From the NCBI GenBank assembly GCA_035221665.1, contig CM069147.1, positions 1,302,001 to 1,366,000 on the forward strand: a stretch of 64,000 bases of DNA, given 5' to 3'. Shown here in pieces: positions 439 to 63,421 of this stretch. Positions within the stretch are counted from its first letter, which is position 1; each line of letters begins with the position of its first letter. The notes under the pieces are model-generated. The model ran no database searches. It was not told the origin of the DNA and saw nothing but the letters and a program-made list of their open reading frames with translations. This stretch comes from Okamejei kenojei. Lineage: Eukaryota. The translations under genes and the position numbers were made by a program.

Positions 439-3400
439 CGTTATTGTCATTGTGCAGTGTACAAGTACAGAGACAACGGAATGGAGTCAGCATCTCACCC
501 AGAAGTGCCAACACAGAATAATGGAACAGTAAATATATATATGTATATACAGTAGCAGTAGTGCAAATTTCGGGGGGGGGGGGGGGGGGTGGGAGATCAG
601 TCACTGGGGGAAGGATGTCCGTGGGGGGGTGACTGGCAATCACCAAGGTGCAGATTAAGCAGTGTAACAGCCGCAGGGAAGAAGCTGTTCCTGAACCTGC
701 TGGTCCGGCAACGGAGAGACTGGTAGCGCCTCCCGGATGGGAGGAGGGTAAACAGTCTGTGGCTGGGGTGAGAGCAGTCCTTGACGATGCTGCGCGCCCT
801 TCGCAGACATCGCTTGCTTTGGACAGACTCAATGGAGGGGAGTGAGGAACCGGTGATGCGTTGGGCGATCTTCACCACCCTCTGCAGTGCTTTCCGGTCG
901 GAGACAGAGCAGTTGCCATACCATACTGTGATACAGTTGGTAAGGATGCTCTCAATGGTGCAGCGGTAGAAGTTCACCGGAATCTGAGGAGACAGATGGA
1001 CCTTCTTTAGTCTCCTCAGGAAGAAGAGATGCTGGTGAGCCTTCTTGACCAGTGTAGAGGTATTGTGGGTCCAAGAGAGGTCATCAGAGATGTTGACCCC
1101 CAGAAACCTGAAACTGGAAACACGTTCCACCTCCGTCCCATTAATATGGATGGGGGTGTGCGTGCAGCCCCAAGACCTTCTATAGTCTACAATGAGCTCC
1201 TTGGTCTTCTTGAAGTTAAGGGCCAGGTTGTTGTCAGCGCACCATGCTGCTAGGAGCTGAACCTCCTCCCTATAGGCCGACTCATCGTTGTCGCTGATGA
1301 TGATGATGGTGTTAGAACCATGCAGTCATAGGTGAAGAGGGAGTAGAGGAGGGGGCTCAGTACACAGCCCTGTGGAACGCCGGTGTTCAGGGTGAGGGTT
1401 GAAGAGGTGTGATTGTCCAACCTAACAGACTGTGGTCTGTTAGTCAGGAAGTCCAGTATCCAGTTGCAAAGGGAGGGGTTGATGCCCAGGTCGCTGAGTT
1501 TGGGATAATGGTGTTAAATGCTGAGCTAAAGTCGATGAACAGCATTCTCACGTAGGTGTCTCTGTTGTCGAGGTGGGGGAGGGCGGAGTGAAGTGCCGTG
1601 GAGATGTCATCCTCCGTACTCCTGTTCTTGCGGTAGGTGAACTGATAGGGGCCCAGTGTGGGAGGTAGGCAGCCTTTGAGGTGTGCCAGGACCAGCCTCT
1701 CGAAGCACTTAGTAAGTGCAACTGGGCGGAAGTCGTTGAGGCTCGCCGCAGTGGAGTGTTTTGGCACTGGCACGATGGAGGTAGTTTTAAGGCATGTGGG
1801 GACAACTGCCTGGGCAAGTGACAGGTTGAAGATGTCAGTCCAGACGTCTGTCAGCTGCGGAGCACAGGTCCTGAGGCCAGGCCCGGGGATGCCGTCAGGG
1901 CCGGCAGCCTTACGTACATTAATCCTGCTCAGTGCCGCATACACGTCGATGGGGTCGAGTGTGAGGGGCTGGTGGTCAGCAGGGAGACAGCCTTGATGGC
2001 CAACTCTTGGTTGTCCCTGTCAAAGCGGCCATAAAAGTGATTGAGTTCCTCGAGGAAGGATGCGTCGCTGGAAGTGGGGGTGGAGTTGGTGGCTCTGTAG
2101 TCAGTGATGGCCTGGATGCCATGCCACATGCGTCGGGGGTCAGAGTTGCTGTCGAAGTGCTCCTCGATCCGCAGCTTGTATCTGTGTTTGGCGTTCTTGA
2201 TGCCCCTCTTCAGATTGGCCCTCGATGAACTATAGGCACGGGCATCGCCTGATCTGAAAGCCGAGTCCCGTGCTTTCAGCAGTAGCCTGACCTCGCTGTT
2301 CATCCATTGCTTCTGATTTGGGTATGTGGTGATTTGTTTGAGAGTGGTGACACTGTTGATGGAGGAGTTGATGAAGTCCAGAACAGAGGAAGTATAGGCG
2401 TCAATGTCAGTGTGGGAGTCAAGGGTGGCCTGAGCTGCAAACGCATCCCAGTCAGTGTTACCAAAACGCTGCTGAAGTGTGGAGTCCGCTTCATCTGACC
2501 AAACCTTGACTGTCCTCACTGTGGGGTTAACGCGGCTGATGAGTGGGGAGTACTTAGGGAGCAGGAACAATGATAAAGTGATCAGACTGACCAAGGTGGG
2601 GGAGGGGGGTGGCTTTGTACGCTTCAGCCATGTTGGTGTAGACTTTGTCCGGTGTTTTGTCCACTCTAGTGGCGAAGGAGACATGTTGGTGGAATTTGGG
2701 GAGTACAGTCTTCAGGTTGGAGTGATTGAAGTCACCCGCAACAATGAAGGCTGCGTCTGGATTGAGGGTCAGTTGTTTGCTAACGGCAATATGCAGTTCT
2801 TTCATTGCAAGCTTGGCATTAGCTTCAGGAGGAATATAGGCTGCAGTCACAACAGTGGAGGTAAACTCTCTGGGCAGATAGAACGGTCTGCACTTAACCA
2901 AGAGGAACTCAAGGTTGGCTGAGCAGTGACTCTCAATGATGGTGGTGTCTGTGCACCATGCTTTGTGTACATACATGCACAGACCCCACCTCTGGTCTTA
3001 CCGGAGTCAGATGTTCTGTCCGCTCGGAGTATATGACGCCCCGTTAGCTCGATGGCGCTATCAGGAACGTCGGTGTTGAGGCAAGTTTCTGTGAAGATCA
3101 TGATGCTGCAGTCTTTGATCCAGTTGTGGGAAGTAAGCCGGAGTTCATCCAGTTTGTTCGGAAGTGAGCGTAAGTTTGCGAGGAGAAGGCTAGGAATCTA
3201 TAGCCAGTGTGGGGCTAGCTCTAACCTAGCCTTTAACCCACCTCGGCATCCAGGGCGGTGTTTGTGCTCGTGTCGCCGTCTGTGGGTGCTTCCGGTCGGC
3301 CGAGCTGGCTTGGTACGCTCCGCTCTTCCACCGCTCCGCTGTTCTGGCTAGTTCAGGAGCGAGACGGAGTTCGCCCAAAAAGTTGTTGCAGCTGCAGGAA

Positions 3401-3858: not shown

Positions 3859-4278
3859 TGGTTTCACGGCATTTGCAGCAGGTACATAGCTTAGGTCTCT
3901 GCATTTCAAAATGAAATGATGTGGAAAGACTGTAGGATTTTCCAGGGTGATATCAGAACGGGAATACAATAGTAAGAAAGAGTGAAAAGGAAAGGCCACT
4001 GATGTTTGCTTTCAACTGACGCACCACTAATAGTACCAGCTTGCTGTAAAAACCGTCTGGTGCGTTGATACCGACAAGGAAGGAGATTTGTCATCTTCAT
4101 TGGCTGCCCATATACAACCAGCTTTGTGAAATGGCTGATCAAACCACTCACTTCACCAGTGATTCCAGACGGGCCATAGATCCCGGCCACGGTGACAATG
4201 ACCACGTTCTGTCACTGAATAAGAAAAAGGAGATGATTCCATTTATGGACAAGTTCAACATTCGGAAAAAAAAAGACA

Positions 4279-5089
4279 CAGAGTGCTGGAGTAACTCAGC
4301 GGGTCAGGCAGCATCTGTGGAGAACATGGATAGGTGACGTTTCACAGAGTGCTGGAGTAACTCAGCGGGTCAGGCAGCATCTGTGGAGAACATGGATAGG
4401 TGACGTTTCACAGAGTGCTGGAGTAACTCAGCGGGTCAGGCAGCATCTGTGGAGAACATGGATAGGTGACGTTTCACAGAGTGCTGGAGTAACTCAGCGG
4501 GTCAGGCAGCATCTCTGGAGAACATGGATAGGTGACGTTTCACAGAGTGCTGGAGTAACTCAGCGGGTCAGGCAGCATCTGTGGAGAACATGGATAGGTG
4601 ACGTTTCACAGAGTGCTGGAGTAACTCAGCGGGTCAGGCAGCATCTGTGGAGAACATGGATAGGTGACGTTTCACAGAGTGCTGGAGTAACTCAGCGGGT
4701 CAGGCAGCATCTGTGGAGAACATGGATAGGTGACGTTTCACAGAGTGCTGGAGTAACTCAGCGGGTCAGGCAGCATCTCTGGAGAACATGGATAGGTGAC
4801 GTTTCACAGAGTGCTGGAGTAACTCAGCGGGGCAGGCAGCATCTGTGGAGAACATGGATAGGTGACGTTTCACAGAGTGCTGGAGTAACTCAGCGGGTCA
4901 GGCAGCATCTGTGGAGAACATGGATAGGTGACGTTTCACAGAGTGCTGGAGTAACTCAGCGGGTCAGGCAGCATCTGTGGAGAACATGGATAGGTGACGT
5001 TTCACAGAGTGCTGGAGTAACTCAGCGGGTCAGGCAGCATCTCTGGGGAACATGGATAGGGGATGTTTTGGGTCGAGACCCTTCTTCAG
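4279..5089 (-). repeat. 12 x 66-bp tandem array derived from the Penelope-like hammerhead element, capped by a degenerate hammerhead core
   Basis: Unit cagagtgctggagtaactcagcgggtcaggcagcatctgtggagaacatggataggtgacgtttca starts at 4279, 4345 ... 5005. The array ends in gggtcgagacccttcttcag, the reverse complement of CTGAAGAAGGGTCTCGACCC. Confidence 0.95.
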
Positions 5090-8734: not shown

Positions 8735-8835
8735 AAACTCAGCGGGTCAGGCAGCATCTGTGGAGAACATGGATAGGTGACGTTTCACAGAGTGCTGGAG
8801 TAACTCAGCGGGTCAGGCAGCATCTGTGGAGCATG
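8735..8835 (-). repeat. About 1.5 copies of the 66-bp unit
   Basis: Essentially identical to the unit of the 4279-5089 array. Confidence 0.9.
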
Positions 8836-10684: not shown

Positions 10685-10884
10685 AAGATTGACACAAAAT
10701 GCTGGAGTAACTCAGTGGGACGATGCTGGAGTAACTCAGCAGCATTTATGGATAGAAGGAATGGTTGACATTTTGGGTCAAGACAGTTCCGTCTCTCCAG
10801 GGATGCTGCATGTCCCGCTAAGTTAGTCCAGCCTTTTGTGTCTATCTTTAGTGTAAAGCAGCATCTGTAGTTCCTTCTTACACT
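10685..10884. mobile_element. Palindromic Penelope-like short element with an imperfect 13-bp TSD
   Basis: Inverted arms tgctggagtaactcag / ctaagttagtccagc, flanked by agttattctatca (10672-10684) and agctattctgtca (10885-10897). Confidence 0.7.
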
Positions 10885-23656: not shown

Positions 23657-23863
23657 ACAAGGAACTGCAGATGCTGGAATCCTGAGCAAAACACAAAGTG
23701 CTGGAGTAACTCAGCAGGTAGGCAGCATCTGTGAAGGGAATGGACAGATGGTGAATCCACACCCTTCTGAGTCTAAGAAAGGGTCCCAACTCGAATCGTC
23801 AGCTGTCCATTCCCTCCACAGATGCTGTCTGACCCGCTGAGTTACTCCAGCACTTTGTGTTTG
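23657..23863. mobile_element. Palindromic Penelope-like short element
   Basis: aaacacaaagtgctggagtaactcagc..tggacag is inverted against ctgtcca..gctgagttactccagcactttgtgttt, with a decayed hammerhead core in the centre. Confidence 0.8.
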
Positions 23864-23917
23864 ATAGTATAAGAGATTATTAATTAACTGATGGGTGAGT
23901 ATTAATTAGAACACATG

Positions 23918-24085
23918 GCGTACAGGTGCAACTTACAGGTATACAGGTATCACACACAGGTGTACGGGTGCAACACACAGGTATACAGGTATCACACACA
24001 GGTGTACGGGTGCAACACACAGGTATACAGGTACCACACACAGGTTACAAGTAGCACACGCAGATGGTGTACAGCCACCACACAA
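23918..24085 (+). repeat. 21-bp-period minisatellite (acacacaggtgtacaggtacc-like)
   Basis: Tandem YRYHTQV / YGCNTQV periodicity, reverse complement of the 24283-24720 array. Confidence 0.85.
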
Positions 24086-24282
24086 GGTGGTAATTTAATG
24101 TTTTTAGAAGGCTTGAATTTCAAACATTGTATCACAAAGGTGATTTTCTCCTGATTTTAATTAATAGTCCATCAATCTATGGTGAAGTATAAGTCCAAAC
24201 CAAATGAAAGACTGGGTGAAGGTTTTCTGTCCCGTATTCGTCACGAACCTCTTGGGGTCTTCATTTTCATTTTAGTGAGACT

Positions 24283-24720
24283 GCCTGTATGGTACCTGTT
24301 CACCTGTGGGTGGTACCTGTACACCTGTGAGTGTTACCTGTACACCTGTGTGTGGTACCTCTACACCTGTGTGTGGTACCTGTTCACCTGTGTGTGGTAC
24401 CTGTTCACCTGTGGATGGAACCTGTACACCTGTGTGTGGTACCTGTTCACCTGTGGATGGAACCTGTACACCTGTGTGTGGTACCTGTTCACCTGTGGAT
24501 GGAACCTGTACACCTGTGTGTGGTACCTGTACACCTGTGTGTGGTACCTGCACACCTGTGTATGATACCTGTACACCTGTGTGTGTGATACCTGTACACC
24601 TGTGTGGTACATGCTCACCTGTGTGTGGTTCCTGTACACCTATATGTGATAGCTGCACACATGTATGTGGTACCTGTACACCACCAGTGTGTGGTACCTG
24701 TACACCTATGTACAACCTGA
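24283..24720 (+). repeat. 21-bp minisatellite (ggtacctgtacacctgtgtgt)n, about 20 units
   Basis: Direct tandem repeat giving 7-aa periodic ORFs in several frames on both strands. Confidence 0.92.
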
Positions 24721-25795: not shown

Positions 25796-25926
25796 CTGAA
25801 GAAGGGTCTTAACCCGAAACATCACCCATTCCTTCTCTCCAGAGATGCTGCCTGACCCACTGAGTTACTCCAGCATTTTGTGTCTATCTTCGGTTTAAAC
25901 CAGCATCTGCAGTTCCTTCCTTCACA
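25796..25926 (+). mobile_element. Complete ~130-bp Penelope-like hammerhead element, single copy
   Basis: ctgaagaagggtcttaacccgaaacatcacc...ccagcatctgcagttccttcc, with a nearby direct repeat atattcctac (25781-25790 and 25927-25936). Confidence 0.75.
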
Positions 25927-31642: not shown

Positions 31643-33197
31643 AAGAACAGCATTCTTCTTCATCTCACAGCTCACTGAGAGAACGGTGTTCCTGCCCTAC
31701 CAACATTCACCCAATTACCAATCCTTCTGATGGGTGGAGATGATCAAAAACGCCATGGAACATGGTTGTCTCCAGGTTATGAAGACAATGGAAATGTCAT
31801 CAGTTGCAACTATGGGCATCTCTGAATGAGCGAGCTGGAAGGTGGAGCTGGATCCTGCAGGCTTTTGTTTGTCTGTCTGTCTGTCAAGGCACGAATATCA
31901 ACACCATTATCTGGAGATTAAATAGCATGTACAGTTTGTGATAAGATCAGTGGTCTTTTTGTAATCCATGTTTTCCCCTTATTCTTTAACAATTAAAATA
32001 TAAAACAATTCAAGATAACGAGCAAATAGACTGCACTCAGTTCACACATTTTAAAGTAAATCTAATTATGAAAGTGCTTCATTTTTTTTGAACCAATTAA
32101 TCAGATATTATCTAACATGTCATCAATTGAAATGCTTTTGGAGATTGTGGCCCATTTAGATTTTTCTTAAAGATGTTATTTTGAGTCATGCACACTGATT
32201 GTGGATGGATCTGCAGTGTATTTACTGATTCATGTCTGAAAGACTATTTATTTTCATTTGTTCGTCAATTGGTATTTTATGATTAATTTACATAAAGCCT
32301 GGATGCTGAATATACCAGTGCTCACAAACTATGGATGTTCCCTGTCCGTCAGGCGCACATCCCGCCTGGTTTCTCAGTTTTATTTTCCCTAGTTGAAAGA
32401 AATATTTACTGCTACAAATTATATTTCATTTTGTCCCATCTTTTGTTTGTTTTTAGGAGTACAAATAAGTTCACCAAAATCTTGCCTCCTCAGCTGGGCA
32501 TCTGGATAGCTTTGTAGTGGGAATGAATGGTGAAGGTCGGAGAATGAGAAACCAAGTGTGGCTGGGATCTGAGCGGCAGCTGAATACGGAGATGGTTAAA
32601 GGGGTTTCGCAGGAGGCTTGGGTAAAGGGAAAGCTATAAACTGTAGCTCAGGTGTCACGTGTTGACAACAGTGGAACGGAGGAAGCAAAGAGCAAGACAC
32701 AGTGTGGGGACAGAGACTGTAAATGCTGGGATCTGGAGACAAGACCAAATTGCTGGAGGAACTTGAATACAACAGTATCTGTGAAAGTACAGGGATGGTC
32801 GGCATCCCCACGGCAAGGACAATGGGGTTGAGAGGAGAAAAATAGATCCGCCATGATCGAATGTCAGAGCAGACTCGACGGGCCGAATGGCTTAATTCTG
32901 CTCCTATGTCTTATGGTTTTATGAGTCGAGAGCGAGTGTGTAGGGAAGATAACCAGTATAAGTGCCCCCTCCTACCCCTTGCTCCCTCACCTAGACAAGG
33001 CAATCATCCTCCCCACATCTGTCGGAATTTAGGACAGAAACATAAGGCAGCGAGAGAGGTGAAACCTGGAAAAACCATTGCGGTTTTGGGGAGTGGACAA
33101 AAGCGGGGAGGAGAACATGAAATAGTGAGGCACTGCAGACAACAGAACTTGAGGATGACAATATTAATTGAAACACTTCTCCATGACCTCTGCCCAT

Positions 33198-33231
33198 CTG
33201 AAGAAGGGTCCCACCCCGAAACGTCACCTAT
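33198..33231 (+). ncRNA. Minimal hammerhead ribozyme motif, Penelope-associated type; activity untested
   Basis: CUGAAGA-A-GGG(ucccac)CCC-GAAAC-GUC|ACC has the conserved core boxes, a short stem II and a palindromic ACGU mini stem III. Stem I is not evident in this copy. Confidence 0.6.
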
Positions 33232-34616
33232 CCATGTTCCCCACAGATGCTGCCTGACCCGCTGAGTTACTCCAGCACTCTGTGAAACGTCACCTATCCA
33301 TGTTCTCCACAGATGCTGCCTGACCCGCTGAGTTACTCCAGCACTCTGTGAAACGTCACCTATCCATGTTCTCCACAGATGCTGCCTGACCCGCTGAGTT
33401 ACTCCAGCACTCTGTGAAACGTCACCTATCCATGTTCTCCACAGATGCTGCCTGACCCGCTGAGTTACTCCAGCACTCTGTGAAACGTCACCTATCCATG
33501 TTCTCCACAGATGCTGCCTGACCCGCTGAGTTACTCCAGCACTCTGTGAAACGTCACCTATCCATGTTCTCCACAGATGCTGCCTGACCCGCTGAGTTAC
33601 TCCAGCACTCTGTGAAACGTCACCTATCCATGTTCTCCACAGATGCTGCCTGACCCGCTGAGTTACTCCAGCACTCTGTGAAACGTCACCTATCCATGTT
33701 CTCCACAGATGCTGCCTGACCCGCTGAGTTACTCCAGCACTCTGTGAAACGTCACCTATCCATGTTCCCCACAGATGCTGCCTGACCCGCTGAGTTACTC
33801 CAGCACTCTGTGAAACGTCACCTATCCATGTTCTCCACAGATGCTGCCTGACCCGCTGAGTTACTCCAGCACTCTGTGAAACGTCACCTATCCATGTTCT
33901 CCACAGATGCTGCCTGACCCGCTGAGTTACTCCAGCACTCTGTGAAACGTCACCTATCCATGTTCCCCACAGATGCTGCCTGACCCGCTGAGTTACTCCA
34001 GCACTCTGTGAAACGTCACCTATCCATGTTCTCCACAGATGCTGCCTGACCCGCTGAGTTACTCCAGCACTCTGTGAAACGTCACCTATCCATGTTCTCC
34101 ACAGATGCTGCCTGACCCGCTGAGTTACTCCAGCACTCTGTGAAACGTCACCTATCCATGTTCTCCACAGATGCTGCCTGACCCGCTGAGTTACTCCAGC
34201 ACTCTGTGAAACGTCACCTATCCATGTTCCCCACAGATGCTGCCTGACCCGCTGAGTTACTCCAGCACTCTGTGAATCGTCACTATCCATGTTCTCCACA
34301 GATGCTGCCTGACCCGCTGAGTTACTCCAGCACTCTGTGAAACCTCACCTATCCATGTTCTCCACAGATGCTGTCTGACCCGCTGAGTTACTCCAGCACT
34401 CTGTGAAACGTCACATATGTACGTTCTCCACAGATGCTGCCTGACCCGCTGAGTTACTCCAGCACTCTGTGAAACGTCACCTATCCATGTTCCCCACAGA
34501 TGCTGCCTGACCCGCTGAGTTACTCCAGTACTCTGTGAAACGTCACCTATCCATGTTCCCCACAGATGCTGCCTGACCCGCTGAGTTACTCCAGCACTCT
34601 GTGCATCTGCAGTTCC
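33218..34616 (+). repeat. About 21 x 66-bp tandem array downstream of a hammerhead core
   Basis: Unit gaaacgtcacctatccatgttctccacagatgctgcctgacccgctgagttactccagcactctgt, terminating in catctgcagttcc, the normal 3' end of the element. Confidence 0.95.
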
Positions 34617-35591
34617 ACCATGCTGGTGGAAGAATCCCAGGCAAGATGTGAAACCCAGCAATCAACATCACAGCAATATTGTAATAGACAGGCTCCGTTT
34701 GCCAGAACCATACCAGGGAAAGATGGGAGAATAATCACAGCGAGTTCCTGGGAGTTTTAAACATTGAAAGTATAACTGGTTTTGCATGCAAAGACGCACT
34801 TGGACAGGACTTTTGGCTTAAAGATGGGAGTTTGTGCGCCCACGTTGAACACTTCAATGCCGCAGGCTCCACTACAAGGCTCCTTGCTGAGAACACACAA
34901 AGTTTTATTCTACTTCAAAGTTTCTTCACACTCAGAGGCACAGATCAACTTCTATCAGAGTTGCAGCAGCATCGTCCCTGATCTGGGCTTTTTACTTTTG
35001 AGCTAAACGCCCGTGGAAAATCCAGCCCTTGTGGTGTATTTGTGAAATTGTGACATTTGGAGTAATTTTTAATTGTTAACAGAGATGACTATCTCCAAGC
35101 ATTCTGTTCATGCCGTTAAACTAATCACAGACAAAACCACATTATTATTTATAAAATATAGCCAGAGTAGTAGGTACTTTTCAACCAATTAAATTAAAAT
35201 TGTAGGAAAATCCAAACATTTTGTATTAATTAGTCAGATTAAACCAAATATAAAATGTGAAAACACATGTGGATTCCCCATGCCTGTTTAGAAATGTAGG
35301 GACGGAGGGAGTTAGTAGCTGAGGAAGCCATTCAGCCCTTCAAGCCTGCCTTGCCCTTCCTTACACTCATGGCCGACCACACAGATTCAGGATCTTGCTC
35401 CTGCCCTCTTCCCATCTGCCCGATCCCTCATGCCGGGAACCATAGCTGACTGCTTCTTCAGAAGACTTCATGATCTGGGTTCAGCTGGGTTCAGTGTTTG
35501 AGATTTCCACCGATTTACCACCTTGACGTGAAGCCATTTCTCCTCATCTCAGTTTTTGATGAATTTAGAAATTCCATGTCTCCTGATCTTA

Positions 35592-37907: not shown

Positions 37908-38683
37908 TTCCTTCTCCTCCGCGTCCTAGCTCTTCCACAGCCTACTGTCTCCGCCTCATCCTTTCTTTTTCCCGCCCCCCCCCCGACATCAGTCTGAAGA
38001 AGGGTCACGACCCGAAACATCACCTATTCCTTCGCTCCACAGATGCTGCCTGACCCGCTGAGTTACTCCAGCACTCTGTGAAACGTCACCTATCCATGTT
38101 CTCCACAGATGCTGCCTGACCCGCTGAGTTACTCCAGCACTCTGTGAAACGTCACCTATCCATGTTCTCCACAGATGCTGCCTGACCCGCTGAGTTACTC
38201 CAGCACTCTGTGAAACGTCACCTATCCATGTTCTCCACAGATGCTGCCTGACCTGCTGAGTTACTCCAGCACTCTGTGAAACGTCACCTATCCATGTTCT
38301 CCACAGATGCTGCCTGACCCGCTGAGTTACTCCAGCACTCTGTGAAACGTCACCTATCCATGTTCTCCACAGATGCTGCCTGACCTGCTGAGTTACTCCA
38401 GCACTCTGTGCAAACGTCACCTATCCATGTTCTCCACAGATGCTGCCTGACCCGCTGAGTTACTCCAGCACTCTGTGAAACGTCACCTATCCATGTTCTC
38501 CACAGATGCTGCCTGACCCGCTGAGTTACTCCAGCACTCTGTGAAACGTCACCTATCCATGTTCTCCACAGATGCTGCCTGACCTGCTGAGTTACTCCAG
38601 CACTCTGTGAAACGTCACCTATCCATGTTCTCCACAGATGCTGCCTGACCCGCTGAGTTACTCCAGCACTCTGTGTCTATCTT
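37908..38683 (+). repeat. Penelope-like pyrimidine-rich leader, hammerhead core (37994) and about 10 x 66-bp array
   Basis: cagtctgaagaagggtcacgacccgaaacatcacc followed by the same unit as 33218-34616. Confidence 0.92.
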
Positions 38684-45159: not shown

Positions 45160-45655
45160 TGTGTCGGAAGGAACTGCTTTTTAACTGTTTTAAACCGAAG
45201 ATAGACACAAAAAGGTGGAGTAACTCAGCGGGTCAGTCAGCATCTGTGGAGAACATGGATAGGTGAAGTAACTCAGCGGGTCAGGAGAACGGATAGGTGA
45301 CGTTTCACAGAGTGCAGCGGGTCAGAACATGGATAGGTGACGTTTCACAGAGTGCTGGAGTAACTCAGTGGGTCAGGCAGCATCTGTGGAGAACATGGAT
45401 AGGTGACGTTTCACAGAGTGCTGGAGTAACTCAGCGGGTCAGGCAGCATCTGTGGAGAACATGGATAGGTGACGTTTCACAGAGTGCTGGAGTAACTCAG
45501 CGGGTCAGGCAGCATCTCTAAAGAAAAGGAATAGGTGACGTTTCGGGTCGAGACCTTAGAGTCTGAAGGACGGTTTCAACCTGAAACATCAACTTTTCCT
45601 TCTCTCCAGAGATGCTGCCTGTCCCGCTGAGTTACTCCAGCTTTTTGTGTCTACC
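45160..45655. repeat. Palindromic Penelope-like element whose left arm is expanded by about 4-5 (partly broken) 66-bp units
   Basis: Units at ~45215-45520, then ggtgacgtttcgggtcgagacc|agtctgaagga..ctgaaacatc and an inverted arm to 45653. Confidence 0.85.
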
Positions 45656-47959: not shown

Positions 47960-48237
47960 GACCATTCTTGAACCAAGGATAAGATTGAATTTTGAGTTGA
48001 ATTGTTCTGGCTTTTCCTAACCTGCGCATTGGTGCACAGGTTATTTGTGTATAAACAGAGAAACAAGCAACTGAAGATGCTGGTTTACAAAACAAGACCC
48101 AACCTGCTGGAGTAACTCAACGGGTGACGTTTCAGGTCGGAACCTTTTTTCACCTTTCCATGTTCTCCACAGATGCTGCCTGACCCGCTGAGTTACTCCA
48201 GAACTCTGTGAAACGTCACCTATCCATGTTCTCCAGA

Positions 48238-50472: not shown

Positions 50473-51378
50473 CACACACACACTACCCCCACACNNNNNN
50501 NNNNNNNNNNNNNNNNNNNNNNNNNNNNNNNNNNNNNNNNNNNNNNNNNNNNNNNNNNNNNNNNNNNNNNNNNNNNNNNNNNNNNNNNNNNNNNNNNNNN
50601 NNNNNNNNNNNNNNNNNNNNNNNNNNNNNNNNNNNNNNNNNNNNNNNNNNNNNNNNNNNACACACACTAACCCCCCCCCCACACACACACACACACACAC
50701 TAACCACCCCCCACACACACACACACTACCCCCCCCACACACACACACACTAACCCCCCCACACACACACTAACCCCCCCCCCACACACACACACTACCC
50801 CCCCACACACACACACTAACCCCCCCACACACACACACTAACCCCCCCCCACACACACACTAACCCCCCCACACACACACTACCCCCCCACACACACACA
50901 CTAACCCCCCCCACACACACACACTAACCCCCCCCCACACACACACACTAACCCCCCCCACACACACACTATCCCCCCCCCCACACACACACACACACAC
51001 GCTAACCCCCCCCCACACACACACACTAACCCCCCCCCACACACACACACTAACCCCCCCCCACACACACACACTAACCCCCCCCCACACACACACCCCC
51101 CCCCCACACACACACACAACCACCCCCCCACACACACACGCTAACCCCCCCCACACACACACACTACCCCCCCCACACACACACACACTAACCACCCCCC
51201 ACACACACACACTACCCCCCCCCACACACACACTACCCCCCCAACACACACACTAACCCCCCCCACACACACACACTAACCCCCCCCACACACACACACT
51301 AACCCCCCCCACACACACACACTAACCCCCCCCACACACACACACTACCCCCCCCCCCACACATATACACTAACCCCT
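50473..51378 (+). repeat. Compound (CA)n-CTA(A)-C(n) minisatellite, ~20-25-bp variable unit
   Basis: Repeated acacacacactaacccccccc on both sides of the gap. Confidence 0.9.
50495..50659. other. Assembly gap (165 N)
   Basis: Run of N inside a low-complexity repeat. Confidence 0.99.
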
Positions 51379-51429
51379 TCCCTTGATATTATATTAATAT
51401 TATTCATTGGCTCCTCCCCAGCCCTATCT

Positions 51430-51814
51430 CGAGGGGCAGAGAGAGATGGGCAGAGAAAGAGAGAGAGGGGAGGGGGGCGGATGAGGGGAGAGAGTGGGGG
51501 GTGAGGTGGGGTGGAGGGAGGGGGGGAGGGGATGGAGAGGGGGTGGAGAGGAGGGGAGAGAGGAGAGGGAGGGAGAGGGGAGATGGAGATGGGGAGATGG
51601 AGAGGGGGAGGAGAGAGGGGGAGGAGGGGGGAGGAGAGGAGGAGGAGAGGGGAGGGGGATGGGGAGAGAGGGGGAAGCGGAGGAGGGGGGAGGGGGGCAA
51701 TGGTGGAGAGAGAGGGGAGGGGGAGGAGATGGGGGGAGGGGGGAGGTGGGGGAGGGGGAGAGTGAGGGGGAGGGGGAGGGGGAGGGAGGAGAGGGGAGGG
51801 GGAGGGGGGAGGGG
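51430..51814 (+). repeat. Polypurine (G/A) low-complexity tract
   Basis: About 380 bp almost entirely G and A with many G-runs. Confidence 0.9.
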
Positions 51815-54829: not shown

Positions 54830-55056
54830 CCACAGAGTGCTGGAGTAACTCAACAGGTCAGGCAGCATCTGTGGAGGATGTGGACAGGTGATATTCCAGT
54901 GTGAAGAAGGGTCCCGACCTGAAACGTCGACTGTGCATTACCTCCACAGATGCTGCCTGACCTGTTGAGATACTCCAACACTCTGTGAAACGTCACCTAT
55001 CCATGTTCTCCACAGATGCTGCCTGACCCGCTGAGTTACTCCAGCACTCTGTGTTC
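54830..55056. mobile_element. Palindromic Penelope-like element with one consensus 66-bp unit appended
   Basis: Diverged inverted arms (ctcaacaggtcagg / cctgacctgttgag) followed by a consensus unit from ~54987. Confidence 0.8.
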
Positions 55057-55475
55057 TACACTGAAAGTAAATTAGATGGAAAGAGAAACAGAGGTAATTA
55101 TCATAAACTTACTCTCTTTTCCATTCCTGACAAAGGGTCCACATCGTGAAACGTTCCCCTGTTTCTCTTTCAACAGATGCTGCCTGACCCGCTGCGTGTC
55201 GACCAAAGATAGATGCAGAGTGCTGGAGTAACTCAGCGGGTCAGGCAGCATCTGTGGAGAACATGGATAGGTGACGTTTTGTCTACCGCATGGATTATCT
55301 GCAACTAGAGGTACAGGACCAGGCCAAGACACTCTACTAGGGGGTTGAGGGGTCTCCTGGTGTCCCTCCATGCCTCCTATCGCTAGTTTGTGGGAACACA
55401 CTATTGCAGATAGTTTTCTCTGGGTGAAAAGGACCATTCAAAGTTGCAACTTCAGCCTAATCCAGTGATGTTCCT

Positions 55476-58039: not shown

Positions 58040-60073
58040 AGTGACGTTAGGGATAGAATAAAACTAAAATAAAAAGATGTATAACACAGCAAAGCGTAGC
58101 CAGAAGCCAGAGGATTGGGAAACTTTCATTGGACAACAGAAAGAAACAAAACGGGCAATACGGGCTGAAAAGATGAAGTACAAAAGGAAGCTGGCCAGGA
58201 ATATAAAGAAGGACAGTAAAAGCTTCTTTAGCTATGTTAAGGGAAAAAGAGTAGCAAAGTCAAATGTGGGTCCCTTGAAGGCAGACACGGGTGAAATAAT
58301 TATGGGGAACAAGGAAATGGCAGAAGAGTTGAACAGGTACTTCGGATCTGTCTTCACTAAGGAGAACACAAACAATCTCCCAGATGTACTGGAGGACAGA
58401 GTATCTAAGGGGGTGGAGGAACTGAAAGAAATTTTCATTAGGCGAGAAATAGTATTGGGTAGGCTAATGGGACTGAAGGATGATAAATCCCCTGGGCCTG
58501 ATGGTCTGCATCCCAGGGTCCTCAGGGAGGTGGCTCTACAAATAGTGGACGCATTGGTGATAATTTTCCAATGTTCAATAGATTCAGGATCAGTTCCTGT
58601 GGATTGGAGGATAGCTAATGTTATCCCACTTTTCAAGAAAGGAGCGAGAGAGAAAACGGGGAATTACAGACCAGTTAGCCTGACTTCGGTGGTGGGAAAG
58701 ATGCTGGAGTCAATTATTAAAGAGGTAATAATGGGGCATTTGGATAGCAGTAAAGGGATTAGTCCAAGTCAACATGGATTTATGAAAGGGAAATCATGCT
58801 TGACTAATCTTCTGGAATATTTTGAGGATGTGACAAGTAAAATGGATGAAGGGGTGCCAGTGGATGTAGTGTATCTAGACTTTCAGAAAGCCTTTGATAA
58901 GGTCCCGCACGGGAGACTGGTGACTAAAATTAGAGCACATGGTATTGGGGGTAGGGTGTTGACATGGATAGAAAATTGGTTGGCAGACCGGAAGCAAAGA
59001 GTAGGAGTGAACGGGTCCTTTTCAGAATGGCAGGCAGTGGCGAGTGGAGTGCTGCAAGGCTCGATGTTGGGGCCGCAACTGTTTACCATATATATTAATG
59101 ATTTGGAAGAGGGAATTAGGAGCAACACTAGCAAGTTTGTGGATGACACAAAGCTGGGTGGCAGTGTGAACCGTGAAGAGAATGTTAGGAGGTTGCAGGA
59201 GGACCTGGACAGGTTGAGTGAGTGGGCAGATGCGTGGCAGATGCAGTATAATATAGATAAATGTGAGATTATCCACTTTGGTGGCAAAAACAAGGGGGCA
59301 GATAATTATCTCAATGGGGTTATGTTAGGTAAGGGGGAGGTACAGCGAGACCTGGGTGTCCTTGTACACCAGTCACTGAAAGTTGGCGTGCAGGTACAGC
59401 AGGCAGTGAAGAAAGCTAATGGAATGTTGGCCTTCATAACAAGAGGATTTCAGTATAGGAGTAAAGAGGTTCTTCTGCAGTTGTATAGGGCTCTGGTGAG
59501 ACCACATCTGGAGTATTGTGTACAGTTTTGGTCTCCTAATTTGAGGAAGGACATCCTTGTGATTGTGGCAGTGCAGCGTGGGTTCATGAGATTGATCCCT
59601 GGGATGGCGGGACTGTCATATGAGGAAAGATTGAAAAGACTAGGTTTGTATTCACTGGAGTTTAGAAGGATGAGGGGATATCTTATAGAAACATATAAAA
59701 TTATAAATGGAGTGGACAAGCTAGATGCAAGAAAAATGTTCCCAATGTTGGGTGAGTCCAGAACCAGGGGCCACAGTCTTAGTATAAAGGGGAGGTCATT
59801 TAAGACTGAGGTGAGAAATTTTTTTTTCATGCAGAGAGTTGTGAATTCATGGAATTCCCTGCCACAGAGGGCAGTGGAGGCCAAATCACTGGATGAATTT
59901 AAGAGAGAGTTGGATAGAGCTCTAGGGGCTAGTGGAGTCAAGGGATATGGGGAGAAATCAGGCACGGGTTATTGATTGGGGACGATCAGCCATGATCACA
60001 ATGAATGGCGGTGCTGGCTCGAAGGGCCAAATGGCCTCCTCCTGCACCTATTTTCTATGTTTCTAGATTCTAT
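58040..60073 (+). mobile_element. CR1 LINE, 5'-truncated, young
   Basis: Uninterrupted RT frame plus a 3' UTR ending ttttctatgtttctagattctat. Confidence 0.93.
58077..59975 (+). CDS. CR1 ORF2 fragment (reverse transcriptase domain, 632 aa open, endonuclease missing)
   Basis: KSPGPDGLHPRVL, GNYRPVSLTS, QHGFMKGKSCLTNL, YLDFQKAFDKVPH, SGVLQGSMLGP, SKFVDDTKL, LVRPHLEYCVQFWSP. Confidence 0.9.
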   Translation: MYNTAKRSQKPEDWETFIGQQKETKRAIRAEKMKYKRKLARNIKKDSKSFFSYVKGKRVAKSNVGPLKADTGEIIMGNKEMAEELNRYFGSVFTKENTNNLPDVLEDRVSKGVEELKEIFIRREIVLGRLMGLKDDKSPGPDGLHPRVLREVALQIVDALVIIFQCSIDSGSVPVDWRIANVIPLFKKGAREKTGNYRPVSLTSVVGKMLESIIKEVIMGHLDSSKGISPSQHGFMKGKSCLTNLLEYFEDVTSKMDEGVPVDVVYLDFQKAFDKVPHGRLVTKIRAHGIGGRVLTWIENWLADRKQRVGVNGSFSEWQAVASGVLQGSMLGPQLFTIYINDLEEGIRSNTSKFVDDTKLGGSVNREENVRRLQEDLDRLSEWADAWQMQYNIDKCEIIHFGGKNKGADNYLNGVMLGKGEVQRDLGVLVHQSLKVGVQVQQAVKKANGMLAFITRGFQYRSKEVLLQLYRALVRPHLEYCVQFWSPNLRKDILVIVAVQRGFMRLIPGMAGLSYEERLKRLGLYSLEFRRMRGYLIETYKIINGVDKLDARKMFPMLGESRTRGHSLSIKGRSFKTEVRNFFFMQRVVNSWNSLPQRAVEAKSLDEFKRELDRALGASGVKGYGEKSGTGY

Positions 60074-62872: not shown

Positions 62873-63421
62873 AGTGCCTGTCCACATTTACCTGGGCAGG
62901 TAGTGCCTCTCCACAATTACCTGGGCAGGGAGTGCCTGTCCACATTTACCTGGGCAGGGAGTGCCTCTCCACATTTACCTGGGCAGGGAGTGCCTGTCCA
63001 CATTTACCTGGGCAGGGAGTGCCTCTCCACAATTACTCATGTGGCAGGGAGTGCCTGTCCACATTTACCTGGGCAGGTAGTGCCTGTCCACATTTACCTG
63101 GGCAGGGAGTGCCTGTCCACATTTACCTGGGCAGGGAGTGCCTCTCCACATTTACCTGGGCAGGGAGTGCCTGTCCACATTTACCTGGGCAGGTAGTGCC
63201 TGTCCACATTTACCTGGGCAGGGAGTGCCTGTCCACATTTACCTGGGCAGGGAGTGCCTCTCCACATTTACCTGGGCAGGGAGTGCCTGTCCACATTTAC
63301 CTGGGCAGGTAGTGCCTGTCCACATTTACCTGGGCAGGGAGTGCCTGTCCACATTTACCTGGGCAGGTAGTGCCTGTCCACATTTACCTGGGCAGGGAGT
63401 GCCTCTCCACAATTACTCATG
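62873..63421 (+). repeat. 29-bp minisatellite (agtgcctgtccacatttacctgggcaggg)n, about 19 units
   Basis: Direct tandem repeat with few variants (g/c, g/t, caattac). Confidence 0.95.

Follow-up and report, generated by a model that had tools for sequence, protein, structure and literature searches.

The window, a 64-kb stretch of skate DNA, contains three large arrays of a 66-bp tandem repeat, each with a short hammerhead-like core at one end. The longest is on the plus strand, where a decayed minimal hammerhead core (CUGAAGA, A, stem II; 33198–33217), belonging to a resident copy of a Penelope end, is followed by 21 tandem units (33218–34603), six of them with the same T23C variant, and then by a remnant of the 3′ tail of the resident copy (34604–34616), whose tail motif is as in single copies. 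CCAT is found on both sides of this core-array-tail assembly, at 33194–33197 and 34618–34621; it could reflect duplication of a 4-bp target when the resident copy inserted, or be coincidental. The second plus-strand array has 10 units (38014–38675) after the core of a second resident copy (37994–38013), which is followed by ACAT instead of ACGT. Its first unit has alleles of another subfamily at the start and is of the array type after position 21. On the minus strand there are 12 units (4277–5069) and the core of a third resident copy, with AAAA for GAAA (5070–5089). Period-66 repeats were found by TRF at 33218–34603 (21.0 copies, 98%), 38014–38675 (10.0 copies), and 4277–5068 (12.0 copies), bearing out the three large polarised arrays of the initial annotation. 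The single CTGAAGA-A-stem II core that it placed at the 5′ end is seen in all three and never internally, and the change from GAAA to AAAA in the minus-strand array was confirmed in the sequence. Its strict 5′ polarity, and its statement that the units lack CUGANGA and stem II, also hold more widely, with no internal core in any of 131 arrays.

Four further junction-bearing arrays are present in the window, two without a core, one with stem II only, and one with a mutated core. The stem II-only example is a short minus-strand array with four junctions and a first unit from another subfamily (45207–45555). The mutated core precedes two plus-strand units (54901–55052, the junction-bearing part from 54921), an old one with 12 differences and then a perfect array-type one. 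The core-less pair consist of a unit, a junction, and a partial unit (48144–48236, plus strand) and of a partial unit, a junction, and another partial unit (8736–8832, minus strand). There is also a lone array-type unit with neither core nor junction (55215–55280, minus strand), and the copy at 25796–25920 (plus strand) is an example of the parent, a single core-bearing Penelope end of the commonest subfamily. Head-to-head inverted pairs of Penelope end copies are found at 10693–10840, 23692–23859, 45468–45649, and 54832–55052 in the window, and inverted pairs at the sampled loci L042 and L156/L157 have arrays on both arms.

The arrays are far beyond chance. The exact unit junction has 16,112 matches in the 2.76-Gb genome and a reversed control has none; a unit end followed by a core within 30 nt was matched six times. 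A very rough extrapolation from sampled loci gives ~7,000 arrays genome-wide. The same junction is spanned by RNA reads of organism B (possibly not this species), so it is not an assembly artefact. Units at sampled loci L047-L048 and L106 have many small indels, probably from a noisy assembly consensus, and unit counts there are unreliable. The 66-bp repeat seems to be common to related species; sequencing runs of six organisms contain 0.46–0.63 of the words of a core plus two units. A search of open-access literature found neither a description of the repeat nor any account of a lone genomic core cutting units that lack one.

Core, one unit, and a short tail make up a dispersed element with several subfamilies, and the 66-bp unit corresponds to the 3′ portion of a Penelope end repeat that is very abundant, one subfamily of which alone has 11,219 pattern matches genome-wide. 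ORF pieces with RT-like and GIY-YIG motifs lie upstream of several core-bearing single copies in the same orientation, stopping ~260 nt short of them, and an ORF end is also found upstream of the array at sampled locus L252 (minus strand). The GIY-YIG matches have E values of 3e-4 and 4e-3, both short of Pfam's curated cut-off; Atlas clusters agree, with GIY-YIG and RVT_1 at 0.96. Judged by its sequence, then, the parent can be identified as a Penelope-like 3′ end repeat bearing the minimal hammerhead described in PMC4209133. The ORF pieces and clusters uphold the Penelope origin proposed in the initial annotation, and its picture of a satellite living on a ribozyme element agrees with the location of the arrays inside Penelope end copies. 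A composite dispersed repeat in the interior of chromosome C1 (sampled loci L007, about 1170–1900, and L011, about 940–1900; ~90% identical between these two copies over several hundred bases) also contains a Penelope end, with the junction in 36 copies and with one unit in 13. These numbers give no direction, since collapse of two units would yield the same sequence as an original single one.

Array cores are as diverged as those of single copies, at 10.6% (33 arrays) and 10.9% (166 single copies) from the family majority, counting ungapped cores only (33 of 87 arrays, 166 of 437 single copies). The 116 internal units are just 0.85% from one sequence. Mismatch is 12–13% in first-unit positions 1–20, ~1–2% at unit positions 29 to 52, and 20.6% in last-unit positions 60–66. 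In 23 arrays, cores are 10.7% diverged while first-unit positions 21–59 are only 2.1% diverged. Divergence between units is 1.85% within arrays, 1.91% on the same chromosome, and 2.11% between chromosomes, and 103 of 172 units are identical. Independent slippage inside each copy, perhaps aided by a hairpin, sits badly with this gap between core and unit divergence, and with an identity between chromosomes close to that within arrays. In 16 arrays the first unit opens with alleles of another subfamily, and every one of these has a second unit of the array type; in 15 two-unit arrays, two differences are common to both units, 38 are in unit 1 only, and 16 in unit 2 only. The units were therefore not copied from the resident and came from elsewhere, and the fallback position of the initial annotation, that these might be ordinary slippage minisatellites, is wrong. 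Slippage does have some points in its favor. Unit variants recur within arrays, some interior arrays (L004, L005) have private changes common to several units, indicating a local process, and the junction is at the base of the hairpin. It is a likely route of growth; as the route of origin it is contradicted, and as an account of the whole it is extremely improbable.

Transposition of a master element, consisting of a core with its tandem units, or hitchhiking of such an assembly in larger repeats, is shown to be a minor route by the composite repeat, with its junction and single-unit copies, and by a few arrays within segmental duplications. Cores moved in this way should, however, match the units in youth and uniformity, and they do not. 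Flanks are mostly unique; of 128 arrays, only 17 have a shared flank upstream and 11 have one downstream. As the main route this is contradicted, and we find it barely tenable.

What we consider probable is that a young 66-bp satellite, derived from a Penelope 3′ end, has spread near chromosome ends into older resident copies of several subfamilies, with ectopic gene conversion as the likely means. When a resident copy is broken, possibly at an 11-bp hairpin or a Penelope endonuclease nick, it would be repaired from an array elsewhere, with entry in one unit and exit in a later one, and the product would be an old core, n new units, and an old tail. Such a copying geometry by itself gives core-first polarity, so that no catalysis is needed. 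Arrays would grow afterwards by unequal exchange, as the variants recurring within them suggest. The direction, units into resident copies, is the one we infer, and DNA donors and RNA or cDNA donors would leave the same sequence behind. High recombination is assumed at these chromosome ends; no paper on it turned up in a literature search.

The cross-chromosome identity and variable ends could also be accounted for by extrachromosomal DNA circles, excised from arrays and returning to resident copies through homology, with or without an intervening round of rolling-circle copying, as has been proposed for Rsp-like in Drosophila (PMC7403614). A single crossover should nevertheless leave every old allele in either the first or the last unit; at position 27 the old allele was kept in three of 10 arrays, where nine would be expected (n = 10, with three last units cut short or truncated, affecting positions 61 and 63). 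This makes circles quite unlikely in our view. Loss of the resident middle fits gap repair, as in the conversion reading preferred here, though later conversion within arrays could mimic it. Concordance of 5′ and 3′ subfamilies was four of nine versus seven of 44 typed, both sparse counts.

The arrays cluster near chromosome ends, and the parent does not. Of the listed junction matches on C1, 12 are spread over the first 188 Mb of the chromosome, and 88 fall in the 4 Mb beyond. For one variant, 91 of the first 100 copies listed are within 13 Mb of a chromosome end, a zone amounting to 19.7% of the length, by a cut-off picked after the list was seen; in every search, positions come from the first 100 matches. 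The parent runs evenly along C1:0–14 Mb among the 100 matches listed of its 11,219, and in 70 kb of chromosome interior there were no arrays among 19 elements. Junction copies do exist in interiors, short and more diverged, and the 36 of the composite repeat are scattered over chromosomes; it follows that the junction is old, and that only the near-end copies stay homogeneous. Interior clusters of these otherwise subtelomeric arrays (C3:27–36 Mb, C6:17–19 Mb, C11:44 Mb) could be traces of ancient chromosome fusions, or of joins made in scaffolding, and several chromosomes have arrays at one end only. A regional clustering of the A17G variant was considered, as four of five arrays with it in the sample are on C1, but genome-wide it is spread over C1–C9 and so gives no sign of nearest-neighbour transfer.

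This distribution also bears on RNA-templated homing without ribozyme cutting, in which a resident end repeat would be nicked by a Penelope protein and would then receive a copy of a multimeric array transcript. Nicking of DNA at its own ORF-pLTR junction has been shown for the anole Penelope protein, and insertion in vitro does not require hammerhead cleavage (PMC11167929). The family is transcribed, with reads spanning the junction, and the unit retains the 3′ hairpin of the element. Penelope copies are found genome-wide, however, and young arrays are not, while the junction of the dispersed family is scattered over interiors. Insertion in the in vitro study was not of a homology-primed kind (PMC11167929), and the changes in the units are mostly CpG decay, which is symmetric (17 C>T and 16 G>A at positions 43–44). 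We regard homing of this kind as unlikely.

In the initial annotation, the core copy was proposed to cut array RNA at each GUC, in cis or in trans, releasing 66-nt monomers for a Penelope RT; circles are considered here as well. A 2017 report is said to have found that Penelope-type hammerheads cleave as dimers. The core recognised in the initial annotation resembles a minimal hammerhead, and the consensus of CUGANGA, a 4-bp stem II, GAAA, ACGU, and UH is present in the family majority and in 32 of 437 single copies; the three window cores that it named all deviate. That at 33198 has three of four stem II pairs and a 1-bp stem I, the 37994 palindrome reads ACAT for ACGT, and the 5089 core combines AAAA, ACAT, and a 0-bp stem I. 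An Rfam scan of the 64-kb window gave no match. Stem I does not exceed 2 bp in 32 of 33 ungapped array cores or in 158 of 166 ungapped cores of single copies, short of the 4–5 bp of the minimal type I hammerhead.

The initial annotation had suggested counting arrays with and without a 5′ core over the genome. This was done on sampled loci, comprising 1,664 kb of window and genome and drawn mostly from array-rich regions rather than at random, with 87 arrays and 437 single copies; left out were five of 89 arrays cut by locus ends and elements within 100 bases of a locus end. A recognisable core was found in 45 of 87 arrays (52%) and 263 of 437 single copies (60%; p = 0.15), a good one in 18 (21%) and 155 (35%; p = 0.008), and a fully intact one in four and 32, respectively. 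Core frequency in the longest arrays (six of seven, compared to 39 of 80 shorter ones; p = 0.11) is the sole result leaning towards cutting, and none of these seven arrays has an intact core. Cores are absent from about half the arrays, and are neither commoner nor more intact than in single copies. The proposed GAAACGTC cleavage site is no better kept than the unit as a whole (0.9% vs. 0.85%). Core position, which had been expected to separate a ribozyme array from an ordinary minisatellite, is indecisive, because copying of units into a resident element places the core first without catalysis.

Folding does not favor cutting either. The hammerhead fold is 9.6–18.1 kcal/mol above the best fold; when core and unit 2 are made to pair, the cost is 13.3, 15.7, and 18.1 kcal/mol in the window arrays and 9.6 kcal/mol for an intact core elsewhere, and the needed stem III pairs have a probability <0.001. 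None of 80 arrays starts at the cut site, where (position 9) five of 456 single copies begin. There is no clear 5′-end peak at the cut site or stem II base, by a boundary method that is disturbed by subfamily differences at positions 13–15. The family is transcribed on both strands in four RNA runs of organism B (possibly not this species), with no pile-up of read starts or ends at GUC, a weak negative since 66-nt RNAs would drop out of the poly(A) and single-cell libraries used. A Penelope hammerhead has been shown to need protein and to be dispensable for insertion in vitro (PMC11167929), so that a protein-assisted route is possible but unnecessary. On the whole, cutting of array RNA by the core is very unlikely, intact cores in 32 single copies notwithstanding; the core appears to be a passenger and is unlikely to cut the repeats.

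The unit itself is predicted to form a rod in which GUC borders a terminal loop, which speaks for stable monomers and circles of the kind that cutting would release. The GUC-to-GUC monomer has a folding energy of −17.1 kcal/mol (z −3.15), and the circular monomer −10.7 compared to −4.6 ± 2.5 for shuffles; only 14 of 226 single-copy 66-mers are as stable when circular. The array alleles C27 and C63 perfect the long stem. This predicted rod would be the best point in favor of an RNA circle. One could picture a circular, core-less 66-nt rod that is released from array RNA in trans by a protein-assisted Penelope hammerhead, is copied by the RT, and homes into thousands of dead parent copies, a parasite borrowing the ribozyme and RT of a Penelope element, but we would call this a long shot. 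No selection on the rod was found in units with up to five differences; stems and loops mutate alike (2.7% vs. 2.9%, p = 0.77), and pair-keeping transitions are not favored (26, against 34 pair-breaking). A DNA hairpin that invites breaks (11 bp, in unit positions 25–67, with the junction at its base) would account for the fold equally well, and quasi-palindromes are subject to correction.

Among known systems, the closest likeness is to the SINE-derived satellites of squamates, in particular snake sSat3 (Vassetzky et al., 2023; PMC10702118). The sSat3 unit is 67 nt, compared to 66 here, and both are part of a dispersed retroelement. Both sSat and skate arrays have a longer terminal unit reaching the end of the element, and both are subtelomeric, with up to thousands of loci (PMC10702118). 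The sSat traits of a sub-part unit, an extended terminal unit, homogeneous units, and a subtelomeric placement against an even parent are all seen here, the last among listed matches and with some internal clusters. Units are 89% alike in sSat, and the parent copies 64% (PMC10702118); the present units, at ~98%, are more homogeneous. The sSat parent is a tRNA SINE, whereas here it is a Penelope end with a hammerhead, which makes this a variant of the sSat type and not a member. Entry into resident copies of other subfamilies, seen here from subfamily alleles, is not mentioned in the text of the sSat account (PMC10702118).

Rsp-like of Drosophila simulans and mauritiana, which spreads into existing 1.688 clusters (Sproul et al., 2020; PMC7403614), is similar in that a young repeat seeds loci containing an older one by homology, and interlocus conversion and DNA circles are candidate routes there as here. 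In that case two unrelated satellites are joined by microhomology on one chromosome (PMC7403614); the target in the present arrays is the parent transposon of the satellite itself, at many chromosome ends.

Non-LTR retrozymes (Cervera and de la Pena, 2020, PMC7229834; Li et al., 2026, 10.64898/2026.07.22.740005) are also tandem repeats derived from Penelope end repeats, and multimers of this type are enriched at chromosome ends in Xenopus. Every retrozyme unit has a full type I hammerhead, as described in these sources, and the present units have none; no hammerhead in at least two consecutive units was found in 131 arrays. The Penelope-end derivation is therefore common to both, but the arrays are not retrozymes. 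The core itself is like the minimal type I hammerheads of metazoan Penelope-like elements, with CUGANGA, an extra base before stem II, GAAA, and a palindromic ACGU, and like them is located in the end repeat (Cervera and De la Pena, 2014, PMC4209133; Frangieh et al., 2024, PMC11167929). Stem I is typically 4–5 bp in these, and is reported as 2 bp in D. virilis (PMC4209133, PMC11167929); in the present family it hardly ever exceeds 2 bp, and decayed copies are the majority.

The arrays are a retroelement-derived satellite, and the marks left by its spread into resident copies are unusually clear. How satellites arrive at new loci is still argued, with interlocus conversion, DNA circles, and RNA routes all proposed (PMC7403614; PMC10702118 leaves the matter undecided). 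Here there are thousands of short arrays, each with a dated, subfamily-marked shell around incoming units, so that where the units entered and left, how long the tracts are, and which donors served can be traced at single loci, making them a good natural test bed. They also suggest some caution, as a ribozyme core ahead of a tandem array can be a passenger.

Other repeats in the window include remains of LINE reverse-transcriptase ORFs at 597–2711 (minus strand) and 58068–59975 (plus strand), the latter 635 aa from stop to stop. Unrelated minisatellites of 21/42, 23, and 29 bp, along with purine-rich simple repeats, are found at 23911–24711, 50680–51814, and 62873–63416.
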